Sequence record: OZ035728.1
Source: Phapecoctavirus 536P1
DNA length: 64,000 bases
Direction: 5' to 3' (one strand)
Under the pieces are notes generated by a model. That model was not told the DNA's origin and made no database searches. It saw nothing but the letters and a program-made list of their open reading frames with translations. Position 1 is the first letter of the stretch. Each line of letters opens with the position of its first letter. The position numbers and the translations under genes were made by a program. This document shows positions 50,013 through 62,766 of the stretch, in pieces.

Positions 50013-50066
50013 TATTTTAACTTTTTTCATTTTTAGAACAAAGGTGTCACTTTGTAGCACAGAAAT

Positions 50067-50103
50067 AAGGCTCCTACAGCACCGTAGAGAGCCTATTATT
50101 TTG
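50067..50103 (+). terminator. probable intrinsic terminator after NADAR gene
   Basis: imperfect GGCTCCTAC...GTAGAGAGCC hairpin followed by TATTATTTTG. Confidence 0.45.
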
Positions 50104-50255
50104 TCCTATACAAACACTTGTCTTTTTCAGTTGGCATTGCTAGGATTCGATCTGGGTGGGTTCCTGAAGGTCTACCAATAAGATTAAAGGTTATCTCAAA
50201 TTCCCACTACCTGTTATCTCAAAAATCCCTCAAATTATTTAAACTTTTTAAGAAT

Positions 50256-50302
50256 TTACAAAAGTGAAAGTTGAAAACCAAAATTTAAAGTTTAGGAAAA
50301 TT
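50256..50302. repeat. 47-bp A-rich direct repeat, copy 1
   Basis: TTACAAAAGTGAAAGTTGAAAACCAAAATTTAAAGTTTAGGAAAATT; about 42/47 identical to copy 2. Confidence 0.6.
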
Positions 50303-50393
50303 ATCTTAAAATGTTAGATACAAAACAAAACTCAAAAGTCAAGGAAAATTTTAAAAATTTTGCGCGCCCACAGTATTTAAAGTTTTTTTGCTT

Positions 50394-50440
50394 TTACAAA
50401 AATGAAAGTACAAAAGCAAAATTTAAAGTTTACAAAAATT
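50394..50440. repeat. 47-bp A-rich direct repeat, copy 2
   Basis: TTACAAAAATGAAAGTACAAAAGCAAAATTTAAAGTTTACAAAAATT. Confidence 0.6.
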
Positions 50441-50455
50441 TTTATGCAGGTGAGA

Positions 50456-50472
50456 ATGAGAAGAGTTCTCAT
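50456..50472. promoter_or_regulatory. perfect palindrome ATGAGAAGAGTTCTCAT (operator-like)
   Basis: 7-bp arms around GAG; shares TTCTCAT half-site with Fur-box-like sites. Confidence 0.4.
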
Positions 50473-50480
50473 GTGGAAAT

Positions 50481-50503
50481 GCAAATGATAATGATTCGCA
50501 TTT
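50481..50503. promoter_or_regulatory. Fur-box-like site (weaker)
   Basis: AAATGATAATGATTCGCATTT; shares TGATAAT core with Fur consensus GATAATGATAATCATTATC. Confidence 0.3.
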
Positions 50504-50540
50504 AAGTTTATAAATGAGATTGATTCTTATTCAATAAGGT

Positions 50541-50569
50541 AAATGATAATCATTCTCATTTAGAGAATG
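50541..50569. promoter_or_regulatory. Fur-box-like palindromic operator
   Basis: TGATAATCATTCTC matches Fur consensus core TGATAATCATTATC at 13/14; continues into palindrome TCATTCTCATTTAGAGAATGA. Confidence 0.45.
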
Positions 50570-50819
50570 ACGCGCAGGGGTGGTGTTTATCTCGCGCTCC
50601 CGTGTCCCCTCGCCATGTAATAAGAATAACAGATCCAGCCAGGAAAGCAAGCGATTATTTTTATCTTTACATTTCTTTACAAATTTATTTTAGACGAGCT
50701 ACCGGCGATCAACCTTCCAACCAGCGCCCTGGTATGTTAGCCCCGCCTTTACGCCGTGGGGTGGCGCTTCCTCTTCTGTATGTAAAACAGTATAAGCCCG
50801 ATCCCTGGGCTTGTCAAGA

Positions 50820-51086
50820 TTATTTTTTGTTTTCTTGCCAGGATAGGACACCTAACCAAAAATGCATATCGCCCCGCGCCCCTGGTGGGATCTTGCTTTC
50901 CCCGCCGCCACTGCAAGCCCATAAATAACCATCAGCGAACGGATCAAAGTTTTCTATTTCTTCCACCTTATGATCGCCCAGGTTGAGAACTGTTTCAGCC
51001 TTTAAGCCCGTTGCGCTTGCTACCTGGTGCACCGTGCCGCCTTGCCAGCCCAATGAGTGCATAAGGTGTAATGTAGTATTTGTCAT
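50820..51086 (-). CDS. hypothetical protein in GC-rich island
   Basis: 88-aa ORF with GC-rich codon usage unlike surrounding genes; weak SD. Confidence 0.35.
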   Translation of the reverse strand: MTNTTLHLMHSLGWQGGTVHQVASATGLKAETVLNLGDHKVEEIENFDPFADGYLWACSGGGESKIPPGARGDMHFWLGVLSWQENKK

Positions 51087-51195
51087 GGTGTCGCCCTTTC
51101 TTTGTTGTGCGCCCTGGTTGGCGCGGTAGAAAGATGATAGCCTTTTCCTTTATATATAGCAAGCAAAAAGAAAATAAAAAAGATTGAAAAAGTGG

Positions 51196-51224
51196 TTGAC
51201 GTTCCTCACCTGGTAGCGTAGTAT
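51196..51224 (+). promoter_or_regulatory. sigma70-like promoter (TTGACG-N17-TAGTAT) heading the cassette array
   Basis: hexamers about 135 nt upstream of ATG 51360. Confidence 0.45.
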
Positions 51225-51359
51225 TCATCTTGTCGAGGGGGGCGAGGCACAACGACAATAAACAACAGGAGGGCGCAATGTAGGACGGGCAAAGGTGAGG
51301 ATCTCCATAATCCACCGTCAACCAACAAAAAACATCATTCATCACCTGGAGTTAAAATC

Positions 51360-51557
51360 ATGGCAACATTGCACATTGTGGCGAAAGCTGGACAAATCAA
51401 CGTAATAGTAAACGGTTTTACTGAGTTCAGTCATCCCCAGGATGATCATGAAACGGTTTTATCTTTCATTGATTCCCTGTTAGAAATGGGAGTCATTACA
51501 GAAGACCAGCACGCTACAAAATGCAAGCGCGTTAATCAAATTGCAGGAATAGAATAA
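51360..51557 (+). CDS. hypothetical small protein
   Basis: 65 aa; first ORF of array. Confidence 0.55.
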   Translation: MATLHIVAKAGQINVIVNGFTEFSHPQDDHETVLSFIDSLLEMGVITEDQHATKCKRVNQIAGIE

Positions 51558-51563
51558 AAACTA

Positions 51564-51626
51564 TTGACAACAAACAACAACCTGATAAGATGTGTCACAT
51601 AGGGCGGCGGAATGGTCCAGCCGCTC
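51564..51626 (+). promoter_or_regulatory. promoter-hairpin cassette A
   Basis: TTGACA-N16-TGaTAAGAT then GGGCGGCGGAATGGTCCAGCCGCTC stem-loop starting about 3 nt after predicted +1. Confidence 0.6.
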
Positions 51627-51649
51627 ACAACAGAAGAGAGATTATAATC

Positions 51650-51922
51650 ATGGCATCATATAGCGCAACAATGATCGTAGCTGGCACCACTGGTAAACCT
51701 ATGAGCGGTGGCGGATCTTTCGCAAATATCAACATTGACGGGCGTTTATCCCTGGACGCAGCGATCACCGTGGCGCGGGAAACATTTAAGAAAGAATGTA
51801 AATTCAATAAACAAGATTATCTCGGTTTTGCTATTGAAAAAACCGCGCGCTTTGTTGATTATAAAAGCCCGAAAATGGTTGATACTACACTAAAAGCGCA
51901 AGATGTAGCGTTTTTGCTTTAA
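51650..51922 (+). CDS. hypothetical small protein
   Basis: 90 aa from ATG after purine-rich leader AGAAGAGAG. Confidence 0.6.
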   Translation: MASYSATMIVAGTTGKPMSGGGSFANINIDGRLSLDAAITVARETFKKECKFNKQDYLGFAIEKTARFVDYKSPKMVDTTLKAQDVAFLL

Positions 51923-51925
51923 GGC

Positions 51926-51980
51926 TTGACATTAACGAATAATTTGTTAATATGTTACATAAAGCGGGAATAGTTCCCGC
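51926..51980 (+). promoter_or_regulatory. promoter-hairpin cassette B
   Basis: TTGACA-N16-TAATAT then GCGGGAA-TAG-TTCCCGC. Confidence 0.6.
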
Positions 51981-51998
51981 TATTTGTAAGGTGGTAGA

Positions 51999-52256
51999 AT
52001 GTTTTACATCAAATTAAAAGGTCACGTGATCGCGTTCAAAGATAACGCTTTTTACAGATTAGCAAAATATGCGTTAATACATCCCCACTATGTTTATATA
52101 AGGGGGCGTGATGAAATAAATATCTTTGATCAAACAACATGCGAGAACATCGAGATCCGCAAGGTTGGCGTACGTGATTATCGTACATCTTTCTACCCTT
52201 GCAAGGATTCAGCAAGTCTTTTTAAAGTATGCCAATTGTTGAAAAAAGGTGGTTAA
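51999..52256 (+). CDS. hypothetical small protein
   Basis: 85 aa. Confidence 0.6.
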   Translation: MFYIKLKGHVIAFKDNAFYRLAKYALIHPHYVYIRGRDEINIFDQTTCENIEIRKVGVRDYRTSFYPCKDSASLFKVCQLLKKGG

Positions 52257-52257
52257 T

Positions 52258-52815
52258 ATGGGCCGCGAATATGTGATCCAGTCTTGGGTAAAACATGAAG
52301 CAGATGATCCGCGCATCATTCCCGATCATCTTATCGATGAATCCACGGGATATAGCGGTGAGCAAATAGGTAACAGATTAGCACGTAGTAACGGCAACGT
52401 AAAAGCGCGTTATGTGCGCCCTGGCTGGCTGGCAAATGGTAACGCTGATTTATCCAGTGCGGAAGATGCGAGCGACGGCGCGAAAGATAATCCTTTGTAC
52501 AAAATTGATCCGGCTTTTCGTGTCCTGGATGAATACCCCAGCAAGATAGCGGCGCTCGATCAGGCCCTGGAAAGTAAGCGCATCACCTGGACCGCTTACA
52601 ACATGGCAAAAAACGTACTTGATGGTAAATTGATTCAAGCTGAAAGGAAATTAGCCAAAATTGCAGCCATAGCCCAGGAGGAAGACGAGGAGACAACGGA
52701 AGAGGAAGAGTACGAAGAGATCCCGCCGTTGTTGTGTGTTGATGCTTTTCCTGATTATCAGCCGACAGAGGAAGAAAAAAGGATTGCACTAGAAAACTTT
52801 GAAAATAGTCTTTGA
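52258..52815 (+). CDS. hypothetical protein with acidic C-terminus
   Basis: 185 aa from ATG after SD AGGTGG. Confidence 0.6.
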   Translation: MGREYVIQSWVKHEADDPRIIPDHLIDESTGYSGEQIGNRLARSNGNVKARYVRPGWLANGNADLSSAEDASDGAKDNPLYKIDPAFRVLDEYPSKIAALDQALESKRITWTAYNMAKNVLDGKLIQAERKLAKIAAIAQEEDEETTEEEEYEEIPPLLCVDAFPDYQPTEEEKRIALENFENSL

Positions 52816-52869
52816 CATATCGCCGCCACTGGCATAATATTTACCACGTAGGGCGGCAATGGTGCCGCT
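52812..52869 (+). promoter_or_regulatory. promoter-hairpin cassette C
   Basis: TTGACA-N17-TAATAT then GGCGGCA-ATGG-TGCCGCT. Confidence 0.6.
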
Positions 52870-52897
52870 CATAGTGAAATTATGCAAGAGGTTTACA

Positions 52898-52993
52898 ATG
52901 ATTAATAAAGAAAATAGCTTGACGGTTGGAACGATTAACGCTATCATTTTCGCCGTTCCATTTTGGGTTGTAGTAGCGGCTATTATTTTCTAA
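52898..52993 (+). CDS. small hydrophobic peptide (31 aa)
   Basis: SD AGAGG; single predicted TM helix. Confidence 0.4.
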   Translation: MINKENSLTVGTINAIIFAVPFWVVVAAIIF

Positions 52994-53002
52994 AAAATAT
53001 TC

Positions 53003-53063
53003 TTGACAACGTTTTTTAATCTGATAAGATGTGTCACATAGGGCGGCGGAATACTTCCCCGCC
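53003..53063 (+). promoter_or_regulatory. promoter-hairpin cassette D
   Basis: TTGACA-N16-TGaTAAGAT then GGCGGCGGAATACTTCCCCGCC. Confidence 0.6.
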
Positions 53064-53084
53064 AAAACAAAAAAGGGTAACACA

Positions 53085-53447
53085 ATGAGCAAGCAAATCA
53101 ATACTATCATGTTTAATCTGGTATCTTTCCGCGATGATATGAAAAATTTACCACGTGAAACGGTTGATATTCATGTTTCAGCTTATCGCGCCCTTATTGA
53201 TATGTTACCGCTAAAACGTGATCAACATGCCGCTAATATGATGCTTAATGCTATGCTTAAAAAGATGATTCAAACGGATCTCACCCTGGCGTATGAGTAT
53301 CAAGGGCGCTTATATGCAACTTACAACAAGGCGGTACCTGGTCTGGGAAGTACCGAAGAGTTGCACGGCTTAAACCTGGATCAAAACACTTGGGATAGTA
53401 TGCGCCGCGTTATGATATGGGCCGAAAGCGGTAAAATTTACGAATAA
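53085..53447 (+). CDS. hypothetical protein
   Basis: 120 aa from ATG after leader AAAAAAGGG. Confidence 0.6.
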   Translation: MSKQINTIMFNLVSFRDDMKNLPRETVDIHVSAYRALIDMLPLKRDQHAANMMLNAMLKKMIQTDLTLAYEYQGRLYATYNKAVPGLGSTEELHGLNLDQNTWDSMRRVMIWAESGKIYE

Positions 53448-53452
53448 AAACG

Positions 53453-53512
53453 GTTGACACTGTTTAAACTTCTGGTATAGTTTACCACATAGGGCGGGAA
53501 GTGGTTTCCCGC
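53453..53512 (+). promoter_or_regulatory. promoter-hairpin cassette E
   Basis: TTGACA-N16-TGgTATAGT then GGCGGGAA-GTGG-TTTCCCGCC. Confidence 0.6.
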
Positions 53513-53535
53513 CAACAATGAAAAAGGTTATCATC

Positions 53536-53901
53536 ATGGCTATTAATATTAATGTTTCCGCTTATGCTACCCTGGCTAACACGGCTAAAATTGAATTATC
53601 CAGCATTGAGGCGGTGCATATTAGCGCCCGTCGCTGGTTTCAACGGTCCTACGGTAACACATATTTTTCTTTAATGGTTGACGTTGAGATCGGCGGTAAA
53701 CTGATCGAGGTGGTTAACGTTCCGTTTCAATATGGCTATGGTGATCATTTTGATACCGTCGCCCTGGAAGAGTTTAGCAAGGTTATCAACCTGGAAGGTA
53801 AAGAGTTTTCAAATTATGCCTACCTTTCCCGTTTTTGCCGTGACAATGGGATCACTGTATACAGTCATGCAAGCGATGTTAAACGTAAAAAAGATCTATA
53901 A
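53536..53901 (+). CDS. hypothetical protein
   Basis: 121 aa from ATG after AAAAAGG leader. Confidence 0.55.
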   Translation: MAININVSAYATLANTAKIELSSIEAVHISARRWFQRSYGNTYFSLMVDVEIGGKLIEVVNVPFQYGYGDHFDTVALEEFSKVINLEGKEFSNYAYLSRFCRDNGITVYSHASDVKRKKDL

Positions 53902-53907
53902 AAAGCA

Positions 53908-53969
53908 TTGACAGCACGAATAAAAAGAGTAAACTGTATTACATAGAGAGCGGGAATACTTCCCGCCTC
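53908..53969 (+). promoter_or_regulatory. promoter-hairpin cassette F
   Basis: TTGACA-N16-TAAACT then GCGGGAA-TAC-TTCCCGC. Confidence 0.55.
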
Positions 53970-53990
53970 ACTGAAAAAGAGATTAATATC

Positions 53991-54230
53991 ATGGCTAAAT
54001 CAAAAATGTTCTTAGGTCACAAAAATAAAACCCATTGGAATGTAAGCCTCTGGATTAATAACGATGAATCATTATATCGGTTGGCGAAAGAATTTATCGC
54101 CGCTAATACTAATCGTAATGATGCTGCGCGGGATATGATGCTTTTTCTGGAACAAACTGGACAAGATAAAACGCCAGACGGTTTCAAATATAGCACTACT
54201 GCGATCCGTGCCGCGATGGTTGGAATGTAA
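53991..54230 (+). CDS. hypothetical small protein
   Basis: 79 aa. Confidence 0.6.
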   Translation: MAKSKMFLGHKNKTHWNVSLWINNDESLYRLAKEFIAANTNRNDAARDMMLFLEQTGQDKTPDGFKYSTTAIRAAMVGM

Positions 54231-54239
54231 TAAAAACAG

Positions 54240-54299
54240 TTGACAACGTTTAAAATTAGTGTAAGATGTATCATATAGGGCGGGAAGTGGTTTCCCGCC
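54240..54299 (+). promoter_or_regulatory. promoter-hairpin cassette G
   Basis: TTGACA-N16-TGTAAGAT then GGCGGGAA-GTGG-TTTCCCGCC. Confidence 0.6.
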
Positions 54300-54320
54300 A
54301 AAACAGAGAGATTAAAGATT

Positions 54321-54548
54321 ATGGCTATCAATATTGTTCGCGTATCCGGCACCGTTGGCACTTCCCAGGTTATTGCAGTTGTAACAAACAAAAAGATTAA
54401 TGATGTATGTGAGATCTTGAATAAGTGGGCTGTTGCTAATTTTGGGGAATATGCAAGCGTCGAGTACATCGAATCCTACCAGGTGCCAACCATCAGCCTA
54501 ACCGATCTCAACGTTGATCGCCTGTTATGCCTGGATGAATTAATCTGA
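54321..54548 (+). CDS. hypothetical small protein
   Basis: 75 aa. Confidence 0.6.
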   Translation: MAINIVRVSGTVGTSQVIAVVTNKKINDVCEILNKWAVANFGEYASVEYIESYQVPTISLTDLNVDRLLCLDELI

Positions 54549-54557
54549 AAAAGATTG

Positions 54558-54620
54558 TTGACACGGGAAAGAAAAAGAGTAAACTGTATTACATCAAGGC
54601 GGCGGAATGGTCCACCGCCT
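54558..54620 (+). promoter_or_regulatory. promoter-hairpin cassette H
   Basis: TTGACA-N16-TAAACT then GGCGGCGGAATGGTCCACCGCC. Confidence 0.55.
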
Positions 54621-54643
54621 AACAAAGAGAAGAGGAAAACACC

Positions 54644-54811
54644 ATGATCACTTTCGCTACCCGTGAAGCCGCTCGCAATGTTGCCCGTAAAGTTAACGCC
54701 GCCAACCTGGGTGCTACGTTTAAAGCACCTGTAAAAGATGAATCAGGAAAATGGATCTTCCCTGGTCTGCGTCACGCTGATAAGCTAGGCACTTTAAGCC
54801 TTAAAAAATAA
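54644..54811 (+). CDS. hypothetical small protein (55 aa), N-terminus MITFA shared with next gene
   Basis: SD-like AGAGAAGAGG leader. Confidence 0.45.
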   Translation: MITFATREAARNVARKVNAANLGATFKAPVKDESGKWIFPGLRHADKLGTLSLKK

Positions 54812-54814
54812 TCG

Positions 54815-54854
54815 TTGACTTTTCGTTATAGCGCCCATCATAAGGCGCTATAGA
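54815..54854 (+). promoter_or_regulatory. atypical cassette I (TTGACT then ATAGCGCC-loop-GGCGCTAT palindrome)
   Basis: -35-like hexamer but hairpin sits where -10 is expected; different stem sequence. Confidence 0.35.
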
Positions 54855-54885
54855 GAAGAGAAACCACTACTAACAAGGAAACATC

Positions 54886-55107
54886 ATGATCACTTTCGCT
54901 ATTGTCGCCGTTGTTGCTGGTCAGGTTTACATAAACGATACATTCACCACAGAAGACAAGGCCGCAGGAGACATAACCGCCGTTTACAATGAGTGCAAGG
55001 CAGTAGAAAGGATGTTAGCGCCTTGTATGCTAATGAGTGAACGCCAGGACGGGATAACAGTATTTACTAACATTGAAACAGGGTACCAAATGGTAGTAAC
55101 AAAATAA
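54886..55107 (+). CDS. hypothetical small protein
   Basis: 73 aa. Confidence 0.55.
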   Translation: MITFAIVAVVAGQVYINDTFTTEDKAAGDITAVYNECKAVERMLAPCMLMSERQDGITVFTNIETGYQMVVTK

Positions 55108-55110
55108 AGC

Positions 55111-55167
55111 TTGACACGGATTTAATTTTCAGTAAACTGTTACACGTAGGGCGGGAATAGTTCCCGC
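55111..55167 (+). promoter_or_regulatory. promoter-hairpin cassette J
   Basis: TTGACA-N16-TAAACT then GCGGGAA-TAG-TTCCCGC. Confidence 0.6.
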
Positions 55168-55185
55168 TAAAAAGAGAGAAAGACC

Positions 55186-55539
55186 ATGAAAGCACAAAAT
55201 ACAATTAAAGAGTACATCCTTGCCGCTATCGATTTTAATGATTATGGTATTACAACCGAAAAAGAGAAGATCGCGGAATTGATGCGCCGTTTTAATTCCG
55301 AGTACTGGTACCCTGATAACCAATCACGTTTTAATTATAGTATTGTTAAAGCACTTGCATCATGGTTACAAGGTTTGCCATCAGATATCAATATCGCTTT
55401 CGAATATTGGGAAATTGATCGCTTGTTAACATCCTGGGGATACATTAAAGAGAATAGCAGCGATGATAAAATCCAACGAGAAAGGGAAAATTATTGGCTT
55501 TATATTGCAGGAGTGATCCTTGCTTGCTCTTATGAATGA
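55186..55539 (+). CDS. hypothetical protein
   Basis: 117 aa. Confidence 0.6.
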   Translation: MKAQNTIKEYILAAIDFNDYGITTEKEKIAELMRRFNSEYWYPDNQSRFNYSIVKALASWLQGLPSDINIAFEYWEIDRLLTSWGYIKENSSDDKIQRERENYWLYIAGVILACSYE

Positions 55540-55545
55540 TAAACC

Positions 55546-55600
55546 TTGACAATTTTACAAAACAGTTTAAATTAACAATATAGCGGCAATGGTGCCGCTC
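55546..55600 (+). promoter_or_regulatory. promoter-hairpin cassette K
   Basis: TTGACA-N16-TAAATT then GCGGCA-ATGG-TGCCGC. Confidence 0.5.
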
Positions 55601-55618
55601 ATATGAAGAGGAAACAAA

Positions 55619-55765
55619 ATGAAGACATCTAATCGCGCAGAAAAAATTCAATCTTCCAAGATCCGCAAGGCCTGGAACGAGGAAGTGATCCGCAAAGGCG
55701 ACAAGCGCAATAAAACAAAGCGCGGGAAGAGTGACAAATATAATTGGATGGATTTAGAGGATTAA
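55619..55765 (+). CDS. small basic protein (48 aa)
   Basis: Lys/Arg-rich; followed directly by terminator. Confidence 0.45.
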   Translation: MKTSNRAEKIQSSKIRKAWNEEVIRKGDKRNKTKRGKSDKYNWMDLED

Positions 55766-55772
55766 CATAACA

Positions 55773-55799
55773 AGGGCGCACCAAGCGCCCTTTCTTTTT
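55773..55799 (+). terminator. intrinsic terminator (GGGCGC-ACCAA-GCGCCC + T tract), copy 1
   Basis: identical hairpin and T tract recur at 60792. Confidence 0.75.
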
Positions 55800-55820
55800 A
55801 TATGTAGAGGATAAACAAAG

Positions 55821-56006
55821 ATGACTTTAAGCGAGCTTAAAACAGCCTACAACGCAACATTAAAAATAGCCGTGCGTTACCGTGATGCGTATGGTTTTAT
55901 CGCGCAGGGCGTGATCCTGGGCTTTTCTGACGATGGTTTGATCTATGTTGATGCACATCATAACAAGGTAAAACCTGAAAACGTCATTAGCATAAAATAT
56001 CTTTAA
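55821..56006 (+). CDS. hypothetical small protein
   Basis: 61 aa; SD GAGGA. Confidence 0.55.
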   Translation: MTLSELKTAYNATLKIAVRYRDAYGFIAQGVILGFSDDGLIYVDAHHNKVKPENVISIKYL

Positions 56007-56012
56007 AAGTGG

Positions 56013-56072
56013 TTGACACCATAACCGGACCTGTTAAACTGTATTACATCAGGCGGGGAATAGTTCCCCACC
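56013..56072 (+). promoter_or_regulatory. promoter-hairpin cassette L
   Basis: TTGACA-N16-TAAACT then GGCGGGGAA-TAG-TTCCCCACC. Confidence 0.55.
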
Positions 56073-56091
56073 ATACAAAAAGGTAAATATT

Positions 56092-56298
56092 ATGATCACC
56101 GCAAAACAAGAGAAAATCATTATCGACGTTGCAGCCGTTGCCGCTATTGCTATTATTGGATCTTATTATGATACCCGTTTCCCGTCGGCTATGCATGAGG
56201 TCGCCGCCGTTGCATCAGTTGGCGTACTGTTTTACGTTGGTAAACGCTATTTATCACCAATGATTAACAAGCTGACACCGTGGAAAAATAAAGGTTGA
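56092..56298 (+). CDS. small membrane protein
   Basis: 68 aa with hydrophobic segment. Confidence 0.55.
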   Translation: MITAKQEKIIIDVAAVAAIAIIGSYYDTRFPSAMHEVAAVASVGVLFYVGKRYLSPMINKLTPWKNKG

Positions 56299-56353
56299 TC
56301 CTGTTTTATATTGTGTTATAGTTATCGTGTAGGGCGGCAATGGTGCCGCGCCC
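56295..56353 (+). promoter_or_regulatory. promoter-hairpin cassette M
   Basis: TTGATC-N16-TATAGT then GGCGGCA-ATGG-TGCCGCG. Confidence 0.5.
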
Positions 56354-56369
56354 CTTTGAGGATGCAATC

Positions 56370-56654
56370 ATGAGTAAAGCTAACACCGTGCTAATGTTTT
56401 CCCTGATTAATGATCCCGCTTACTTGTCCAACATGACGCAGGAGGGTAACACATTAACGGCAACATTCACCAATAAGCTTGACCGAGTGATCATCATCTC
56501 ACTGAAAACAGTTAGTAAAGGCTTTTACTCGTTAGCTTATCATTGGATCACCGATACCGATGAGACAAGCCAGGACTATAGCGCCCCTTTCCCTGAATCA
56601 ATGGCACGGGAGATCATCGCCGCCGTTGTAAATGATGGTTTGTTTACTGAATAA
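56370..56654 (+). CDS. hypothetical protein
   Basis: 94 aa from ATG after SD GAGGA. Confidence 0.55.
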   Translation: MSKANTVLMFSLINDPAYLSNMTQEGNTLTATFTNKLDRVIIISLKTVSKGFYSLAYHWITDTDETSQDYSAPFPESMAREIIAAVVNDGLFTE

Positions 56655-56672
56655 AATAATTTAGAAAAAGGC

Positions 56673-56729
56673 TTGCAATCATTTTGAGATAGTGTATATT
56701 TAATTCATAGGGCGGCGGGAATAGTTCCC
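56673..56729 (+). promoter_or_regulatory. promoter-hairpin cassette N
   Basis: TTGCAA-N16-TATATT then GGCGGCGGGAA-TAG-TTCCC. Confidence 0.5.
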
Positions 56730-56752
56730 AAAGCAAACGAGAGGATTACACG

Positions 56753-56872
56753 ATGAGCAAGTACACAGTAGAATACACGGTAGAAAATCCGGCAGTATCC
56801 GAAGGTAAAAAGATGACATTTGCCATCAATATAATCGCTTTCGTTGTCACTATCTTATCAATCATCTTATAA
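56753..56872 (+). CDS. small hydrophobic peptide (39 aa)
   Basis: SD GAGAGGA; C-terminal TM helix. Confidence 0.45.
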   Translation: MSKYTVEYTVENPAVSEGKKMTFAINIIAFVVTILSIIL

Positions 56873-56882
56873 GGTGCACACC

Positions 56883-57044
56883 ATGAAAACAACAGATATT
56901 ATCAAAGAGATCGCCCTTGCCGCTGGCGTTGAGATCGAGGAAGTGATCGCGCTCAATCTTACAGAAAACGATCTGCGCAACTATGAAGCGGAAAGCGTGA
57001 AAGCAAGCGGCGCGGTCCTGGTATATGATCCGGCTAACAAGTAA
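56883..57044 (+). CDS. hypothetical small protein (53 aa)
   Basis: ATG 10 nt after stop of preceding peptide gene. Confidence 0.45.
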   Translation: MKTTDIIKEIALAAGVEIEEVIALNLTENDLRNYEAESVKASGAVLVYDPANK

Positions 57045-57053
57045 GGGGATAAC

Positions 57054-57203
57054 ATGAATCCGAAAGATATGCAAGCATGGAAAGGGTACGACGATCTAAG
57101 CGCCTTGCGCAATAAGTCAAGCCGTAACTTTAGACGGTTGGAAGCAAAGAAAAAGAAAAATAGTTTGACAAGTCCGCCTAGTCTGATAATATATATCTTG
57201 TAG
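57054..57203 (+). CDS. hypothetical small basic protein (49 aa)
   Basis: SD AAGGGGA; 3' end overlaps cassette O promoter. Confidence 0.35.
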   Translation: MNPKDMQAWKGYDDLSALRNKSSRNFRRLEAKKKKNSLTSPPSLIIYIL

Positions 57204-57222
57204 GGCGGCAATGGTGCCGCTC
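57165..57222 (+). promoter_or_regulatory. promoter-hairpin cassette O
   Basis: TTGACA-N16-TGaTAATAT then GGCGGCA-ATGG-TGCCGCT. Confidence 0.6.
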
Positions 57223-57241
57223 ACAAGAAGAGAGAAAAATC

Positions 57242-57526
57242 ATGAAAATCACAAAAAGCCTAACTAATTATGCAGCACGTCGCGGATTATGTTTAACCGT
57301 TGAAAACTTAGGGAAAGAAGACTTTTTGTGTTTTTGGGAGCTTGAAAATGATTGCGAGTGGATGTTTTCTTATTCTATCTGCGAAGATCAAAACGGTTGT
57401 TTGTTAACCTGGCGCGGTAATATCTGTTTACCGGAAGAAATTAAAGAAGAGTTACCAGGTACGATCATGACAGAGAGACAGCTTAAGGAAGTGATCAATT
57501 TTGTAGGGCAAAACATTAAAAAATAA
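57242..57526 (+). CDS. hypothetical Cys-containing protein
   Basis: 94 aa. Confidence 0.6.
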   Translation: MKITKSLTNYAARRGLCLTVENLGKEDFLCFWELENDCEWMFSYSICEDQNGCLLTWRGNICLPEEIKEELPGTIMTERQLKEVINFVGQNIKK

Positions 57527-57527
57527 T

Positions 57528-57590
57528 TTGACAGTAGGCAAACAACGTAGTAAAGTTTATTACATAGAGCGGCGGAATGGTCCACCGCTC
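57528..57590 (+). promoter_or_regulatory. promoter-hairpin cassette P
   Basis: TTGACA-N17-TAAAGT then GCGGCGGAATGGTCCACCGC. Confidence 0.55.
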
Positions 57591-57611
57591 ACAACAGAAG
57601 AGAAACAAATC

Positions 57612-57782
57612 ATGATCCCGACTATGTTTTATGTATCGCGCAAAGGTCACAATATTTTTTGGTCTGAAGATTTAAATGAAGCTATGACGTTTGCCCGTGA
57701 TCGTGTTGCTATCGGTGGCGTTAACATCACCGTAACCGATGAAAATGGCATTGAATACTATAACGGCGACGATGAAGAATAA
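57612..57782 (+). CDS. hypothetical small protein (56 aa)
   Basis: ATG after leader AGAAGAGAAACAAATC. Confidence 0.5.
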   Translation: MIPTMFYVSRKGHNIFWSEDLNEAMTFARDRVAIGGVNITVTDENGIEYYNGDDEE

Positions 57783-57788
57783 TTAATG

Positions 57789-57813
57789 AGGCGGGGGGAG
57801 TATTCCCCGCCGT
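57789..57813 (+). promoter_or_regulatory. leader stem-loop Q without recognisable promoter
   Basis: GGCGGGGGGAG-TAT-TCCCCGCC directly upstream of SD of gene 57831. Confidence 0.4.
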
Positions 57814-57830
57814 CAATAAAGAGGTAAATC

Positions 57831-58100
57831 ATGAAAATATCATTGGACGTTGCAATCAAGGCCATCGAATCCGGTTACATCCTGGTAAAAGATGATAAGG
57901 CTAAAATAGTGCATCATGTTAACAAGGAAACAGGCGAAAGCATGATCACATATAAAGCCGCCTACTTTCTCCAATCAGTAGCAGATCCGCGCGTACAACG
58001 CCAGGTTACGGCGGCTATTGCTAAAAAATTATGTGCTTTACAGGGTGCAAGTTTTAACGAGATTGCCCCGTGTTTTGAGTGGTCAAGCTTGAAAAAATAA
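57831..58100 (+). CDS. hypothetical protein
   Basis: 89 aa; SD AGAGG. Confidence 0.6.
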   Translation: MKISLDVAIKAIESGYILVKDDKAKIVHHVNKETGESMITYKAAYFLQSVADPRVQRQVTAAIAKKLCALQGASFNEIAPCFEWSSLKK

Positions 58101-58101
58101 T

Positions 58102-58163
58102 TTGACAACAATTATAAATCGGGTAGAATGTATTTCGTAGGGCGGGGCAATAAGGCAACGCCC
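58102..58163 (+). promoter_or_regulatory. promoter-hairpin cassette R
   Basis: TTGACA-N16-TAGAAT then GGGCG...CGCCC stem with long loop. Confidence 0.5.
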
Positions 58164-58181
58164 ATTAATGAGGGTAGAATC

Positions 58182-58286
58182 ATGTTAGAGAAAATTTTCA
58201 CGGTCGTAGTAGTGGGCCTGGCGTTATCGGTTGGAGTAGTTGCAACTATGGCTAATATGATCCTATCTTCCCACGGTATCGGCTAA
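58182..58286 (+). CDS. small hydrophobic peptide (34 aa)
   Basis: SD GAGGG; single TM helix. Confidence 0.4.
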   Translation: MLEKIFTVVVVGLALSVGVVATMANMILSSHGIG

Positions 58287-58300
58287 AAGAGAGACACAAC

Positions 58301-58687
58301 ATGAAAACAGAAATCATTATTGAAATCATCAACGGCTATAAAGAAGCCTTTATTTTTGCTGAATCAGCAAGGGATCATGAAGGTAATTTTATTGATAACT
58401 TAGACGATTATGATTTTTCTCCTAGCGCGGACGAACGGATCGCCCAGGATGTAACAGCCTTTATTAATGCTAATCTTGCCGCTATCTCTGAGGCAATGAG
58501 CGACGGCGCAACAGCCATCCAGATCGGGAGTGATTTACATTTTACCCGTAACGGTCACGGCATAGGCTTTTGGAATCGCCCTGAAATATACACTACTAAC
58601 ACGGCGAACCGCCTAACAAATGCCGCTAAGTTTATGCCTATTGTGTCGGCTTACATTGGTGAAGATAATTTGATTTATATTGAATAA
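58301..58687 (+). CDS. hypothetical acidic protein
   Basis: 128 aa; leader AAAGAGAGACACAAC. Confidence 0.6.
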   Translation: MKTEIIIEIINGYKEAFIFAESARDHEGNFIDNLDDYDFSPSADERIAQDVTAFINANLAAISEAMSDGATAIQIGSDLHFTRNGHGIGFWNRPEIYTTNTANRLTNAAKFMPIVSAYIGEDNLIYIE

Positions 58688-58693
58688 AAAGTA

Positions 58694-58751
58694 TTGACAC
58701 AGATCGCCAGTGTGCTAATATTTACCACGTAGGGCGGCAATGGTGCCGCTC
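58694..58751 (+). promoter_or_regulatory. promoter-hairpin cassette S
   Basis: TTGACA-N16-TGcTAATAT then GGCGGCA-ATGG-TGCCGCT. Confidence 0.6.
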
Positions 58752-58770
58752 ACTGTAAAAGGTAAACATT

Positions 58771-58962
58771 ATGAAAACTATCACCTATCTGGAATCTAAT
58801 AACATGTTTTTCGCCCCCGTTGATGAAATCATCGAAGCATTAAACAACGAGGAAGGGATCAAAGGTTTATCTTATAGCCAACTTTTAGGAATGGTTGCAG
58901 CAAATGAGGAGCTTGCTTACTATATTGAAAATTTTGATGAAGCTGTAATCTTTACAAAATAA
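58771..58962 (+). CDS. hypothetical small acidic protein
   Basis: 63 aa. Confidence 0.55.
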   Translation: MKTITYLESNNMFFAPVDEIIEALNNEEGIKGLSYSQLLGMVAANEELAYYIENFDEAVIFTK

Positions 58963-58964
58963 TC

Positions 58965-59021
58965 CTTGATCTAATCTCTCAGATAACTTATATTTAATGC
59001 GTAGGGCGGCAATGGTGCCGC
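58965..59021 (+). promoter_or_regulatory. promoter-hairpin cassette T
   Basis: TTGATC-N16-TATATT then GGCGGCA-ATGG-TGCCGCC. Confidence 0.5.
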
Positions 59022-59040
59022 CGATAATGAGGAAAACAAA

Positions 59041-59340
59041 ATGGAAACTATCGCTATTGTTACCGTAGAAAAACTGGTTGTTGGTGATGTATTCGCGTTA
59101 ATGGTGCCTAACAGCAGCAAGCTGGGCGCTTATGAAGTAATGGATCATAAAAATGAATCATTTGGCGACGGTTGCACAATGGCGGTAAAATCTTTAAAGG
59201 ATGGAATCATCCGCCAGGCTAACTGGCACAAAGGGAATCAAGTCGGTTTAATATCAGCTAATTTCTTGCCAGAAGAGCAAACATTAGATCAACTATCAGG
59301 CGGTAAGACGTTAGCCGAACTACTGGAAACAGCGATCTAA
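59041..59340 (+). CDS. hypothetical protein
   Basis: 99 aa. Confidence 0.6.
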   Translation: METIAIVTVEKLVVGDVFALMVPNSSKLGAYEVMDHKNESFGDGCTMAVKSLKDGIIRQANWHKGNQVGLISANFLPEEQTLDQLSGGKTLAELLETAI

Positions 59341-59347
59341 TCGACAA

Positions 59348-59364
59348 GGGGCGGCAACGCCCCC
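59348..59364 (+). promoter_or_regulatory. leader stem-loop U (GGGGCG-GCAA-CGCCCC, GNRA-type loop)
   Basis: hairpin 30 nt upstream of ATG 59394; no promoter hexamers seen. Confidence 0.4.
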
Positions 59365-59393
59365 ATTAAACGCAATAGGAAGAGGATAGACAC

Positions 59394-59678
59394 ATGAAAA
59401 AGACGATCGCAGTAGTTGCCCTGGTTGTTGGTATTAACGCGCCTGTAATGGCGAAAGAGTTGCCAGAATCCATCACGTTAACCGATATTAACGCAGTGAA
59501 CCGGATCGGTGTTAATTATCGCCTATGCCTTGCCGCTAAAACTTTCCAGGACGGCACAACAGAGTACTACGGATTCGAGGGTGTTCGGTGCGGTGAGCTT
59601 GCACGCGACCTTAAGGAAGATCCAGACCTTGAGGCCATACCGATGACCGTAAACGGTAAAGCCCAGGTAAACCGCTAA
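59394..59678 (+). CDS. secreted/periplasmic protein
   Basis: signal peptide MKKTIAVVALVVGINAPVMA; SD AGGAAGAGGA. Confidence 0.6.
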   Translation: MKKTIAVVALVVGINAPVMAKELPESITLTDINAVNRIGVNYRLCLAAKTFQDGTTEYYGFEGVRCGELARDLKEDPDLEAIPMTVNGKAQVNR

Positions 59679-59680
59679 CC

Positions 59681-59815
59681 ATGAGAAAGGTAATCATCAC
59701 AATGGGGATCGTAGTAGCAACGCTGGCGCTTATTCCCTTCCTGGTTGAATATGTGCTGATTAATGTTGTCCTAGTAGTCAGTGACCTATTGGAAACGGTT
59801 GGCACCTGGTTTTAA
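59681..59815 (+). CDS. small membrane peptide (44 aa)
   Basis: ATG 2 nt after upstream stop; two hydrophobic stretches. Confidence 0.4.
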   Translation: MRKVIITMGIVVATLALIPFLVEYVLINVVLVVSDLLETVGTWF

Positions 59816-59823
59816 AAATAAAT

Positions 59824-59853
59824 AAACAGGACTTGTTTTTGTCCTGTTTTTTG
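59824..59853 (+). terminator. intrinsic terminator
   Basis: ACAGGAC-loop-GTCCTGT hairpin followed by TTTTTTG. Confidence 0.65.
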
Positions 59854-59991
59854 TTATACTTATTAAACGGGCGGCACTTGGGAGCAGGTGAAGATAATCA
59901 CCGGAAGATCCCGCTATATATCGATAGCTAATACCTATCAAACAACAAAACATCAAAGAGATAAACTATTAAATCTTTACAATCCTACATA

Positions 59992-60020
59992 TTGACCGAT
60001 AAATCACAACAGTTTAATAT
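59992..60020 (+). promoter_or_regulatory. sigma70-like promoter (TTGACC-N17-TAATAT), no leader hairpin
   Basis: about 50 nt upstream of ATG 60069. Confidence 0.45.
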
Positions 60021-60068
60021 TGTTTTCAGAGGTTAAAATATTCCCCAAACGAAAACAGGAAAAAGAAA

Positions 60069-60305
60069 ATGAAAGAAGTTATGATCCTCAAAAAATCACC
60101 TATTTTACGTGGTGGCTTTATCGCTTACTCTGATGATCTGTTAATTGCAACAGTTGCAAAAATACTAAAATCAGAAGATGACAGTAAAAACGGCGTTTAT
60201 CGTATCTGTTTCACCCGTGGAAAATTACAAGGTAAGATCGCTTATGCCTTTGACTTACAAGATGTAAACGATAAAATATGCGCTGTTATTGATTATGCAA
60301 AATAG
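60069..60305 (+). CDS. hypothetical small protein
   Basis: 78 aa; A-rich SD. Confidence 0.55.
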   Translation: MKEVMILKKSPILRGGFIAYSDDLLIATVAKILKSEDDSKNGVYRICFTRGKLQGKIAYAFDLQDVNDKICAVIDYAK

Positions 60306-60317
60306 TTAATTTTCTTA

Positions 60318-60358
60318 TTGACACCGGATCACGCTTGCATTATTATTTATCACGTAGG
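60318..60358 (+). promoter_or_regulatory. cassette V: promoter with degenerate leader (CACGTAGGGC retained, stem lost)
   Basis: TTGACA-N17-TATTAT then CACGTAGGGCAAATCATTTT. Confidence 0.45.
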
Positions 60359-60392
60359 GCAAATCATTTTAAACGGTAAACGAGGAATCACC

Positions 60393-60776
60393 ATGAGCAA
60401 TATCATCAACCTGGCAGCGACTGTAAACGGTAAAGACTTTAACGGCGCTGTAGACCGTGATCCTATGTGGTGCTTATCAGTGTTTAAAGGCGACCTGGTT
60501 GAAGTTAGAACAACCGAAGGGTATAGCGATGATTATAAATGTGAGATCCATTTGCATAACTGGTACACGGGTAAAACTTATGCGCTGAATCACGCGTTTA
60601 TCGGAAAAATCGAATATTGTGAGATGATTGACGAAGAAACGGGGCAAGATTTTAGCGAAAACGTTTATATTCGTTCAGAAACATTAGCCGAACGTTTGAT
60701 CGAGAAAATGAAAGCAAAAAATAAAATTAATTTATCTCATTGGATTGATATAACAAACGATCCAGCTTATCAATAA
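60393..60776 (+). CDS. hypothetical protein
   Basis: 127 aa from ATG after SD GAGGAA. Confidence 0.6.
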   Translation: MSNIINLAATVNGKDFNGAVDRDPMWCLSVFKGDLVEVRTTEGYSDDYKCEIHLHNWYTGKTYALNHAFIGKIEYCEMIDEETGQDFSENVYIRSETLAERLIEKMKAKNKINLSHWIDITNDPAYQ

Positions 60777-60791
60777 ATAACATTTCACACC

Positions 60792-60818
60792 AGGGCGCAC
60801 CAAGCGCCCTTTCTTTTT
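60792..60818 (+). terminator. intrinsic terminator (GGGCGC-ACCAA-GCGCCC + T tract), copy 2; closes cassette array
   Basis: identical to terminator at 55773. Confidence 0.75.
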
Positions 60819-60959
60819 GCCCGAACAATGTTGATAGCTTTCGCCTATGAAAAACCGACACAGAACAAAATTGAATAAATAGCGGTATCAAGCTAATCAA
60901 CCATTAAACGAATAACCATACCTCCCAGGGTAACAGGCTGTTAGAGAGCCATTTATAGC

Positions 60960-61320
60960 GGTTAAAATCGATCAACAACCAACAACAAACCATCAAAAAC
61001 ACCTTTTTACCTCCTTTCTAGTGCAATGATAACCATTATCATCTACCCATGATTATCTATGCAATATAAGCGCATAACTATAATGTTGATAATAGTTCGC
61101 AACAACTAACCAACAAACAACATAAAACAATAAGCAAACTAATCATAATCAAAGGAATAATAGCAAGATGATTGATAACGACAAACAATCAAACCATGAT
61201 AAATACTAAGCAAAATAACGATAACACGACAAAACAACCAACTAACGAACAATAACAAACGAAACCATTAAAATAATAACTATTAGCAAAATAGTGCATG
61301 AATGAAATCATTACAAAACG
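60960..61320. repeat. A/C-rich, G- and T-poor low-complexity tract without ORFs
   Basis: runs such as CAACAACCAACAACAAACCATCAAAAACACC and AACAACATAAAACAATAAGCAAACTAATCATAATC; strong strand asymmetry. Confidence 0.6.
61026..61043. promoter_or_regulatory. Fur-box-like site
   Basis: TGATAACCATTATCATC resembles 3' two-thirds of Fur consensus. Confidence 0.3.
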
Positions 61321-61882
61321 AATCATTCACAGAGTCATCATTAGCACGCTACGCCGGACACGTAGCGAGCTAATAATAAGCCAACTACACCCCAACAATC
61401 ATAACCATCGGTGACGGTTATTTCTTGTTACTGCGTAGCTTGCAATAATTGCAAGCGTAATGACGCTTACACTTATTGCGCTGGCTTATTATTAGCATTA
61501 TATGTAATTACCAAGATCATAACATTAGCGCAATAACAATAATCATTGTGGTAATTACAAGAGTTATCACTATCGTTCAGTGTGATCATCATTAGCAGGA
61601 TGAATAATTGCACGTAGCAACATGAGCGAATAGCGACAGGTTGCATAGTGTGCACATAGTGTATAAACATACAAGAAAATAAAGGCTAATCTTTTGGGGG
61701 CGAATACTATCGCGTAGCGATATGTTGAGCACTAAGAGAAGAGATAAACCTTAATCATGGGGGCGTAAATATCCGCAGGATTGCCAACGGCGATCCGGTA
61801 GGATGTTGAGCACCTTCTCTTAAACGTAAATAAAATCAGAAAATTCTTGATTTATTTTAGTTTTTATGTTAATAAACGTTTA

Positions 61883-61900
61883 AATAATAATCATTCTCAT
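61883..61900. promoter_or_regulatory. Fur-box-like site
   Basis: AATAATAATCATTCTCAT; 12/14 to TGATAATCATTATC core. Confidence 0.4.
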
Positions 61901-62061
61901 ATAAATAATAGTCCGTCTGTCATGAGCGGGATCAGTTGACAATGTTCCGTCATATGATGAAGTTGCCAAACCATTGATAAATAAGTGTTTGTGTGATTTA
62001 TAATCAGGTGGCCCACCTTGTCGCTATGTTGGCATGAGCCTTGCATAAGTCATTGAATACG

Positions 62062-62085
62062 AATGATAATTATTCTCATTCTCAT
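62062..62085. promoter_or_regulatory. Fur-box-like site
   Basis: AATGATAATTATTCTCATTCTCAT; 12/14 to Fur core with duplicated TTCTCAT. Confidence 0.4.
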
Positions 62086-62421
62086 GATATTTGGGAATTG
62101 TCGCTGCGTGGACCTGACGGCCCGAAAATTCGCGTTAAGCACTTCTTACGTATGCGCCATGATTTTTGCCATATCATATTGATTCTATTAGATATTCTTG
62201 CCATGATTGCCATGAAACAGGGTGTCCCGAAATAATCTCTCCCCGTAGATATTTTGGGTTACTTTTTATACAAGAGCGGGGTGTCAAAAATAATCGGTAT
62301 ATATGGGATAATTGATAGGAATCCCCTATGATAATTCGATTGTAATTCCCTAAGATTGATCGTATGATGTTGGTGATTGATGATTGCCATGAAAGATGGC
62401 TAACGATGAGAGGAGATTGTC

Positions 62422-62766
62422 ATGCAAGAGAGTAAAAATGTTCCGTTGAGTAGTTTACGTCTAATGAAGTTTTACAAAGCTTGGCTTGCTGGTGAGGTAG
62501 AAGGTCACACAACGAGTGGCTTGTGCATATGTTTGATTAAGTATGTAGAGGGAACATATCCTGATGAACTGTTACCTCGTCTACAACAGGAGATGAAATC
62601 ACAGTTTATTGGTGCAGGACTGGATTACAATTTCCCGTTTAATGAAGGTGGTTATGAGGAATACACCTTCGAACATAAAAAACATATTTGCCATAAAAAC
62701 AAACATCGTATACAATGGGTGCTAGATAGAATTCAAGATTACGAAGGAGAGAAAAATGACAAATAG
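62422..62766 (+). CDS. hypothetical protein, paralogue of 62756..63124
   Basis: 114 aa; SD GAGAGGAG; shares SSLRLMKFYKAWLA...TTSGLCICL pattern with next gene. Confidence 0.6.
   Translation: MQESKNVPLSSLRLMKFYKAWLAGEVEGHTTSGLCICLIKYVEGTYPDELLPRLQQEMKSQFIGAGLDYNFPFNEGGYEEYTFEHKKHICHKNKHRIQWVLDRIQDYEGEKNDK

Follow-up and report, generated by a model that had tools for sequence, protein, structure and literature searches.

Fur boxes, the operators at which the Escherichia coli protein Fur binds in its Fe2+ form, are textbook promoter elements. No more than 42 clusters in the whole of the E. coli chromosome score above 17 bits, the ryhB operator being among the strongest sites reported at 25.2 bits; 39 of the 42 strong clusters overlap promoters, and native clusters contain sites offset by 6 bp (Chen et al. 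2007). On phage DNA, such boxes have been found only at the cargo genes of prophages, such as stx1 and sitABCD. For instance, a Fur box at stx1 of Shiga-toxin phages joins phage DNA to the Fur regulon (PMC6969025), and a further report places one at the sitABCD operon carried by lambdoid coliphages (PMC5552940). The subject of the present study is a set of Fur-box-like palindromes in a 64,000 nt stretch of the genome of Phapecoctavirus 536P1 (OZ035728.1), termed here the window, to which all coordinates refer unless another genome is named. These boxes lie in two non-coding hubs either side of an array of small gene cassettes, one to its left (region A) and one to its right (region B), and are most likely genuine host Fur-Fe2+ binding sites, as predicted from their sequence. 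With a probability put at roughly 45%, they would be kept by the phage as cis-acting elements of these hubs and not as operators of the cassettes. As with stx1 and sitABCD, a host Fur box is carried on phage DNA; however, the boxes of the temperate phages are promoter operators of bacterial-type accessory genes in a prophage, whereas the phage studied here is virulent, no cargo gene is involved and the boxes appear as structural parts of non-coding hubs and genome ends.

The weight matrix used to score the boxes was learned from native regions because scoring against an idealised consensus was to be avoided. An unseeded expectation-maximisation (EM) search with random starts, run on 14 Fur-regulated intergenic regions of E. 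coli MG1655 (fhuA, fepA-fes, fepD-entS, fepB, entC, fur, fiu, tonB, cirA, exbB, ryhB, fecI, fecA and fhuF), converged on the Fur box, and 12 recovered sites were used. A preliminary description of the window had listed six palindromic elements resembling this operator, all of which lie where it had placed them, and the match of 13 of 14 core positions that it reported for the best of them is correct. When scored with the matrix, five of these sites take the first five ranks among the approximately 128,000 positions of the window, at 25.3, 23.2, 21.0, 19.6 and 18.2 bits, compared with 12.9-22.1 bits (median 17.7) for native E. coli sites under leave-one-out scoring. Dinucleotide-preserving shuffles give a chance expectation, for sites of at least 18 bits, of 0.057 per window, 0.0015 in region A and 0.0045 in region B, and the observed site count was reached by no shuffle. 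Similarly, the flagged sites are the only ones scoring at least 18 bits in the whole genome (approximately 148 kb) of the closely related phage phAPEC8, in which nothing above 14.2 bits is found in the 84 kb outside the equivalent of the window. One further box, absent from the earlier list, lies at 50513-50531 (12.5 bits).

By consensus as well as by matrix score, the boxes stand at the level of proven sites. They agree with the 19 bp Fur consensus at 14-16 of 19 positions and with its 7-1-7 core at 12-13 of 14, a better fit than that to the consensus of the ARG-box (ArgR), Zur or IHF, and they are near-identical to the ryhB, fhuA, fecI and entC operators, which have the same 19 bp quasi-palindromic form and which they equal or exceed in score. 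Second matches at a 6 bp offset, as seen in native Fur clusters, are found at 50478/50484, 50536/50542 and 62056/62062, these pairs being partly a consequence of the motif's own 6 bp periodicity. More than 120 bacterial genomes, spread over many phyla, contain the exact 19-mer of the highest-scoring box, A3; of 120, 36 have it within 1.5 kb of iron-uptake or fur homologues, such genes occupying 8% of bases close to the site and 2-3% at distances above 2 kb. Occupancy of the phage boxes by Fur is judged likely, as, if somewhat less so, is selection on them for Fur binding.

The right-hand hub includes the physical ends of the virion DNA. In phage Schickermooser, for which a terminal repeat of 328 bp has been reported (Korf et al. 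2019; PMC6563267), the first 329 nt are exactly the same as the last 329 nt and map to 61809-62137 of the window at 97.6% identity; in addition, many GenBank records of the genus begin at 61809 or finish near 62137. Boxes D1 and D2 therefore lie within a 329 bp direct terminal repeat, both borders of which have the sequence TTR^AGCAC. The first of these (D1, AATAATAATCATTCTCATA, 61883-61901, 21.0 bits), which has 15 nt identical to the fhuA operator, is 74 bp inside the left border, and the second (D2, AATGATAATTATTCTCATT, 62062-62080, 23.2 bits), which has a further match of 16.9 bits at -6 bp (62056-62074), ends 57 bp from the right border. Both are contained in a 1.6 kb region free of open reading frames (ORFs). 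What had been taken for the right border of the cassette array is, at these two sites, the terminal repeat itself. The solitary box B1 (AATGATAACCATTATCATC, 61025-61043, 19.6 bits) is found 215 bp after the terminator of the array and approximately 780 bp upstream of the repeat, and a candidate weak box (ATTGATAACGACAAACAAT, 61171-61189, 17.0 bits), conserved in phAPEC8 and phiWec188, is non-palindromic and of uncertain status. The virion genome consequently harbours seven boxes of at least 18 bits, comprising three unique sites and two in each copy of the terminal repeat. A long terminal repeat of the T5 type, spanning the cassette array, was considered and found unsupported, as the longer records of WPEC1 and WPEC2 carry region A once only.

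These sites persist in relatives in which the surrounding sequence has diverged. All are kept in phiWec188, though its terminal repeat is only 72% identical to that of the window, and within the repeat conservation between the two phages is confined to the blocks of both borders and both boxes. Of the 19 positions of D1, 18 are conserved in phiWec188, and D2 is lengthened there by exactly one GATAAT hexamer, which leaves the register intact and gives matches of 22.2 and 23.2 bits; B1 scores 19.6 bits in both phAPEC8 and phiWec188. In Justusliebigvirus alia, boxes of 21.6, 19.1 and 23.2 bits occupy the equivalent 1.8 kb ORF-free region. The 19-mer of the last is identical to that of D2 and precedes the same GCGTTA^AGCAC border, whereas the counterparts of B1 (21.6 bits) and D1 (19.1 bits) have changed in sequence and are still Fur-like. 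Such turnover with retention of Fur-likeness is the pattern expected if binding, and not the sequence itself, is selected.

In the left-hand hub, four boxes beginning at 50455, 50484, 50513 and 50542 form an array (50455-50560) with an exact spacing of 29 bp. The anchor of this array is A3 (AATGATAATCATTCTCATT, 50542-50560), the best site in the window at 25.3 bits, which matches the ryhB operator at all but one of 19 positions and has 15 nt in common with that of entC. Next to it in the register are the weaker A2 (AATGAGATTGATTCTTATT, 50513-50531), which keeps the phasing, and A1 (AATGATAATGATTCGCATT, 50484-50502, 18.2 bits, with an overlapping match of 15.7 bits at -6 bp, 50478-50496), around which a 29 nt stretch is identical to a box unit of the T5-like phage pork27. 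The first in the register, A0 (AATGAGAAGAGTTCTCATG, 50455-50473), has perfect 7 nt arms around GAG and is degenerate, scoring 7.6 bits alone. Of 17 genomes or contigs, 16 have the anchor 185-195 bp from a conserved core (at -185 to -195), with additional boxes at -29 and -58 bp relative to the anchor; equivalents of A2 at -29 bp are present in other genera. Directly to the left of the array is an AT-rich stretch (50231-50440) with two 72 nt direct repeats of 82% identity (50231-50302 and 50369-50440); the segment 50182-50601 is 28.6% G+C and contains neither GATC nor DnaA boxes.

Directly to the right of the array is a GC-rich non-coding element of approximately 225 nt (50561-50786), present in 236 phage records of Stephanstirmvirinae, Vequintavirinae and relatives on Klebsiella, Salmonella, Cronobacter, Erwinia and Pectobacterium. 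It is probably transcribed leftward, on the minus strand, from two predicted promoters. P1 (50817-50789, minus; TTGACA-17-TATACT) matches the sigma-70 consensus at 11 of 12 positions and, at a score of 14.1, equals the best cassette promoters; its -35, -10 and spacing are kept in Certrevirus and Seunavirus relatives despite a differing spacer. P2 (50650-50623, minus) is sigma-70-like, reading TTGCTT-16-TATTCT in the window and TTGCAA-17-TATATT in other genera, and A3 starts at approximately +57 to +59 from its predicted start. Both are directed leftward into the array, with their hexamers and spacing conserved and their spacers not. The sites previously described as the left border of the cassettes thus lie downstream of two promoters aimed at them from the opposite strand. 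An inverted repeat at 50549-50571 (minus; GTCATTCTC-TAAAT-GAGAATGAT), the 3' arm of which is the proximal half of A3 and the 5' arm of which differs among genera yet stays complementary, could be a weak hairpin ending leftward transcripts.

The plus strand of the GC-rich element is annotated in phAPEC8 as 'gp009'. This 108 aa ORF is rich in P and R and is equally conserved in all frames; it is probably not a gene, and the annotation probably wrong. Together with P1 and P2, the element is a candidate for a new phage non-coding RNA (ncRNA) or origin priming transcript. Covariation within it is weak, with one pair changing from G-C to A-U (7 versus 6 sequences), and a structured RNA formed by the P1 and P2 transcripts was not retained as a conclusion, RNAalifold finding 1-2 covarying pairs, too little to call. 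A scan of 49500-63000 against Rfam, at E values up to 1, matched no family.

The preliminary description had interpreted the boxes as operators at the borders of the cassettes, controlling early genes. Read as classical Fur operators, they would repress early sigma-70 promoters in iron-replete cells and permit induction on iron limitation, much as at ryhB, the promoter of which has -10-like hexamers within its box; each phage box likewise contains such hexamers (GATAAT on one strand and TATCAT on the other), and the 17 kb operon rightward of the terminal repeat lacks an annotated promoter of its own. Promoter-like matches do occur at the boxes (TTTACA-17-GAGAAT, 50429-50457; TTGAAT-18-TAAACT, 50534-50505, minus; TTGATA-19-TATAAT, 61974-62004), but two scans for overlap recovered only such weak matches, scoring 7-10 against 11.6-14.1 for the real early promoters of the phage and not conserved in phiWec188 or alia, and no promoter scoring above 10 overlaps a box. 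None of the cassette sigma-70 promoters carries one. By contrast, native strong sites sit on the -35 and -10 of promoters, whereas the phage boxes are in the terminal repeat and downstream of converging promoters. A lytic phage able to form plaques on rich media would also pay heavily for repressing its early genes in iron-replete hosts. As the boxes avoid promoters that are strong or conserved and those of the cassettes are boxless, the operator model is poorly supported and is regarded as improbable; the identification as Fur boxes has withstood the sequence tests, while its framing in terms of operators and early genes has not. A literature search found no Phapecoctavirus transcriptome.

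The contexts actually occupied by the boxes have in common that the DNA is untranslated, that it separates transcription units which are terminated or converge, and that a terminal repeat is there or close by; they favour a roadblock, insulator or architectural reading. In an iron-replete cell, Fur-Fe2+ dimers would be present on the boxes, the 6 bp offset sites permitting two dimers per box, and would form a stable block at which RNA polymerase arriving from P1 or P2 is halted. Bound Fur would similarly keep transcription out of the terminal repeat and mark these segments architecturally. When iron is scarce, apo-Fur would depart and read-through would follow, such that phage functions linked to the hubs would be coupled to host iron status. 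Most concretely, an iron-dependent arrest of P1 and P2 transcripts at the array is predicted. A roadblock or insulator effect of this type is put forward tentatively, with slightly less confidence than the retention of the boxes as cis-acting elements.

A number of points weigh against this interpretation. Both the occupancy of the boxes by Fur and its function are deduced from sequence, the P1 and P2 transcripts are predicted, and P2 is weak in the window, though stronger in contigs of Vequintavirinae. Given that 39 of 42 strong E. coli clusters are on promoters, a roadblock or architectural use would be atypical of Fur. Growth of these phages is good in iron-replete laboratory media, so a block by Fur cannot be essential-negative. 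A roadblock gives no obvious reason for the symmetrical placement of boxes a short way within the two borders of the terminal repeat, and phased 19 bp palindromes beside an AT-rich region look like the iterons of an origin. Finally, at the symmetric positions 6 and 14 the phage consensus is GAGAAT (G 47%) and the native one GATAAT (T 75%), a preference that could point to another protein; the 29 bp phasing is likewise foreign to native clusters.

These last features are those that would be expected were the boxes the iterons or operators of a phage protein, whether a replication initiator, a small terminase or a repressor, with the likeness to Fur arising through coincidence or mimicry. Four palindromes at 29 bp intervals beside AT-rich DNA, towards which P1 and P2 fire, recall the arrangement at the lambda origin; the departure from GATAAT is systematic, and the DNA nearby encodes small proteins by the dozen whose function is unknown. 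A non-Fur binding protein is possible. However, a match of 25 bits to an unrelated host operator would not be expected by chance, and the frequency matrix of the phased boxes shows a correlation of 0.85 with the native Fur matrix, the maximum among 2000 column permutations being 0.62. Nor is the motif confined to a lineage encoding its binder: boxes are common to phage families of unrelated gene content (the T5-like Demerecviridae, the Vequintavirinae and the Stephanstirmvirinae), to Seunavirus and Certrevirus phages and to viral contigs of 21-53% G+C, and a tblastn search with E. coli Fur of 50,697 phage records gave no match in the families that carry them. The turnover between alia and the window, moreover, stays Fur-like and does not keep a lineage-specific sequence. 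Since boxes extend across families without a Fur homologue, the shared factor would most simply be host Fur. Sites for a phage protein are consequently judged unlikely, and the private phage repressor with a Fur-like half-site, which had been offered as an alternative in the preliminary description, is weakened.

Among the other phages with such boxes is T5, the region in question being annotated as 'Repeat Region 3', associated with the injection stop (Wang et al. 2005). BLAST searches with the array region also match T5-like phages, inside the left terminal repeat. In T5 itself (AY587007, 9468-9637), the boxes correspond to palindromes E, G, H and I of the annotation together with copies 1-4 of direct repeat C, and score 14-20 bits; those of pork27 (2041-2561) reach 23 bits. 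The T5 boxes lie between paired DnaA boxes and a terminator hairpin, immediately left of major nick 1, and span position 9618, the calculated shear point of first-step transfer given by Davison, whose account of the region discusses the DnaA boxes and not Fur (bioRxiv 10.1101/866236). The T5 literature searched does not connect the palindromes with Fur. The box sequence, the presence of arrays in a large untranslated region and the position inside a terminal repeat, as shown here by D1 and D2, are common to T5 and the window. There are also differences: the T5 repeat is 10 kb long, with boxes approximately 500 bp from its inner border beside the paired DnaA boxes and nick 1, whereas the repeat here is 329 bp and neither hub contains DnaA boxes. 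A region of the T5 type is further marked by pre-early genes carried on its repeats of approximately 10 kb, by the A1 and A2 genes and by two-step DNA transfer, the last of which is not known for the Phapecoctavirus phage.

A broader survey, in which IMG/VR was scanned with a degenerate palindrome, matched more than 120 contigs, of which 120 were analysed. Two or more sites of at least 16 bits were present in 54 of them, at 21-53% G+C, clusters of Fur-like boxes being found in many viral contigs that are unrelated, and the motif was more frequent near contig ends, with 24 instances within 500 bp compared with 10.3 expected (Kolmogorov-Smirnov p = 2e-4). One contig of 21% G+C (L043) has nine boxes of at least 19.8 bits at 850-2751, within 2 kb of its start.

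An association with DNA ends is the basis for considering host Fur as an architectural accessory factor in a DNA transaction at genome ends, and not in transcription. Host regulators are employed in this manner elsewhere: ArgR and PepA act as accessory factors at cer of ColE1, and IHF does so at cosB within lambda cos. As at the lambda origin, such systems place host-protein sites, or phased 19 bp palindromes, by AT-rich segments or cut sites and have no promoter role. Candidate transactions in the phage would be cleavage by terminase or the duplication of the terminal repeat, the synapsis of its two copies for the formation of concatemers, or control of DNA entry as in T5, with region A serving as a second site such as an origin. 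The positions of D1 and D2 relative to the two cut sites, the restriction of conservation within the repeat to borders and boxes in phiWec188, the location of the T5 palindromes and repeat C at nick 1 and the shear point, and the enrichment near viral contig ends are all in keeping with this proposal, as are the phased boxes, AT-rich repeats and inward promoters of region A, upstream of which is an AAA ATPase faintly similar to DnaC or to clamp loaders. On the other hand, a binder that depends on iron would be an odd choice for an essential step, the array of region A is 11 kb from the terminus, and the enrichment at contig ends is modest and possibly reflects assembly breaks at repeats. An accessory role is thus considered a minority possibility, ahead of sites for a phage protein, and a similarly low probability attaches to the wider proposition that Fur would have been recruited as a structural host factor, at terminal repeats and the non-coding hubs next to them, by several unrelated families of large virulent phages of enterobacteria (rV5- and phAPEC8-like myoviruses on one side and T5-like siphoviruses on the other).

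A further suggestion of the preliminary description was that the boxes titrate Fur. As a decoy, replicating phage DNA would sequester Fur, derepressing iron uptake and RyhB and thereby securing iron for the class Ia ribonucleotide reductase; the phage encodes both NrdA and NrdB, and the seven strong boxes of its virion genome are all at the high-affinity end of the native range. Multicopy Fur boxes are able to titrate Fur in vivo, as in the Fur titration assay (FURTA). Early in infection, however, titration is implausible, as only 5-7 sites would face several thousand Fur molecules, and a decoy has no need of fixed positions, 29 bp phasing or placement in a terminal repeat. T5 is reported to degrade host DNA early, before replication; as T5 has box arrays, derepression of host genes would be pointless there and cannot be the shared function. 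The decoy is accordingly the least probable of the explanations entertained.

A full-text literature search found no description of Fur boxes in T5-, rV5- or phAPEC8-like phages, an earlier mention being possible, for example in the T5 and H8 genome papers. To our knowledge, an accessory or architectural role for Fur on DNA has not been reported. Boxes as good as the best host operators here belong to what is conserved at the physical ends of a virulent phage's genome, and in addition to a conserved non-coding module that over 200 sequenced phages with uses in therapy and biocontrol have in common. Should Fur bind to them, host iron status would feed into phage DNA-end or ncRNA functions, and, as iron is limiting in the gut, urine and blood, phage efficacy in vivo could be affected. 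If the link to T5 is true, its long unexplained injection-stop palindromes would be Fur boxes, and Fur, perhaps with DnaA, would act in arresting, marking or processing phage DNA ends in an iron-responsive manner; this bears on a question that has stood for over 50 years, namely what it is that halts the first step of DNA transfer. On a smaller scale, the 'gp009' annotation would be corrected and a candidate ncRNA or origin element is indicated in its place.

The phage itself was identified by megablast as a phAPEC8-like Phapecoctavirus (Stephanstirmvirinae), a genus of virulent E. coli myoviruses with genomes of approximately 148 kb; the window is approximately 97% identical to phAPEC8, with 50200 corresponding to phAPEC8 position 142682 and 60800 to position 5502. 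GenBank records bearing the names of Campylobacter, Acinetobacter, Pseudomonas and 'Dompiswa' phages show 91-97% identity to the E. coli phage in the regions compared, and the hosts given for them look doubtful. The cassette array consists of approximately 35 small plus strand genes between 51300 and 60800, each preceded by an A-tract, a near-consensus sigma-70 promoter (TTGACA, 16-17 nt, TAnnnT) and a conserved leader hairpin (GTAGGGCGGCAATGGTGCCGCTCA). In phAPEC8 this hairpin is labelled a 'PHIRE promoter', its position being downstream of the actual sigma-70 promoter. No tRNAs were found in the window.

Further features accompany the left-hand hub and its equivalents. In relatives belonging to the Vequintavirinae (L014, L015, L133, L143-L153), repeated GATC palindromes (TCTCGATCGAGA) and A6T6 tracts are found approximately 100-250 bp to the left of the box arrays, in a region that looks like a replication origin; its equivalent in Phapecoctavirus is the AT-rich stretch of 72 nt repeats. 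The record of phage ETEC-TG starts at 50184, and a genome end in region A was rejected on the grounds that this record is circular and has no repeat.

Around the terminal repeat, the ORF-free segment 60811-61300 is strongly strand-asymmetric (A 45%, G 12%) and abounds in CAACAA-type repeats spaced 76 and 128 nt. It is followed at 61369-61496 by a perfect 15 nt inverted repeat (GCTAATAATAAGCCA and its complement TGGCTTATTATTAGC), between the arms of which, 98 nt apart, is a perfect 19 bp palindrome (GCTTGCAATAATTGCAAGC, 61438-61456). A unit of the form GGGGGCG...ATGTTGAGCAC is present twice, at 61696-61732 and 61759-61813; the left cut site is where the second copy ends, so that the first is possibly a pseudo-cut site or an element of terminase recognition. 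The TTR^AGCAC motif of the right border falls within 62132-62145. Between the terminal repeat and the first gene, GGGGTGTC-N3-AAATAATC is repeated at 62220-62237 and 62278-62295, a motif conserved in alia, and ATGATTGCCATGAAA is repeated at 62203 and 62380. These motifs, within 62203-62399, may be phage-specific promoter or regulatory signals for the 17 kb left-end operon. The first two genes after the repeat (62422-63124; 114 and 122 aa) are paralogues, both matching phrog_2510, a family of unknown function, and neither having a Pfam match.

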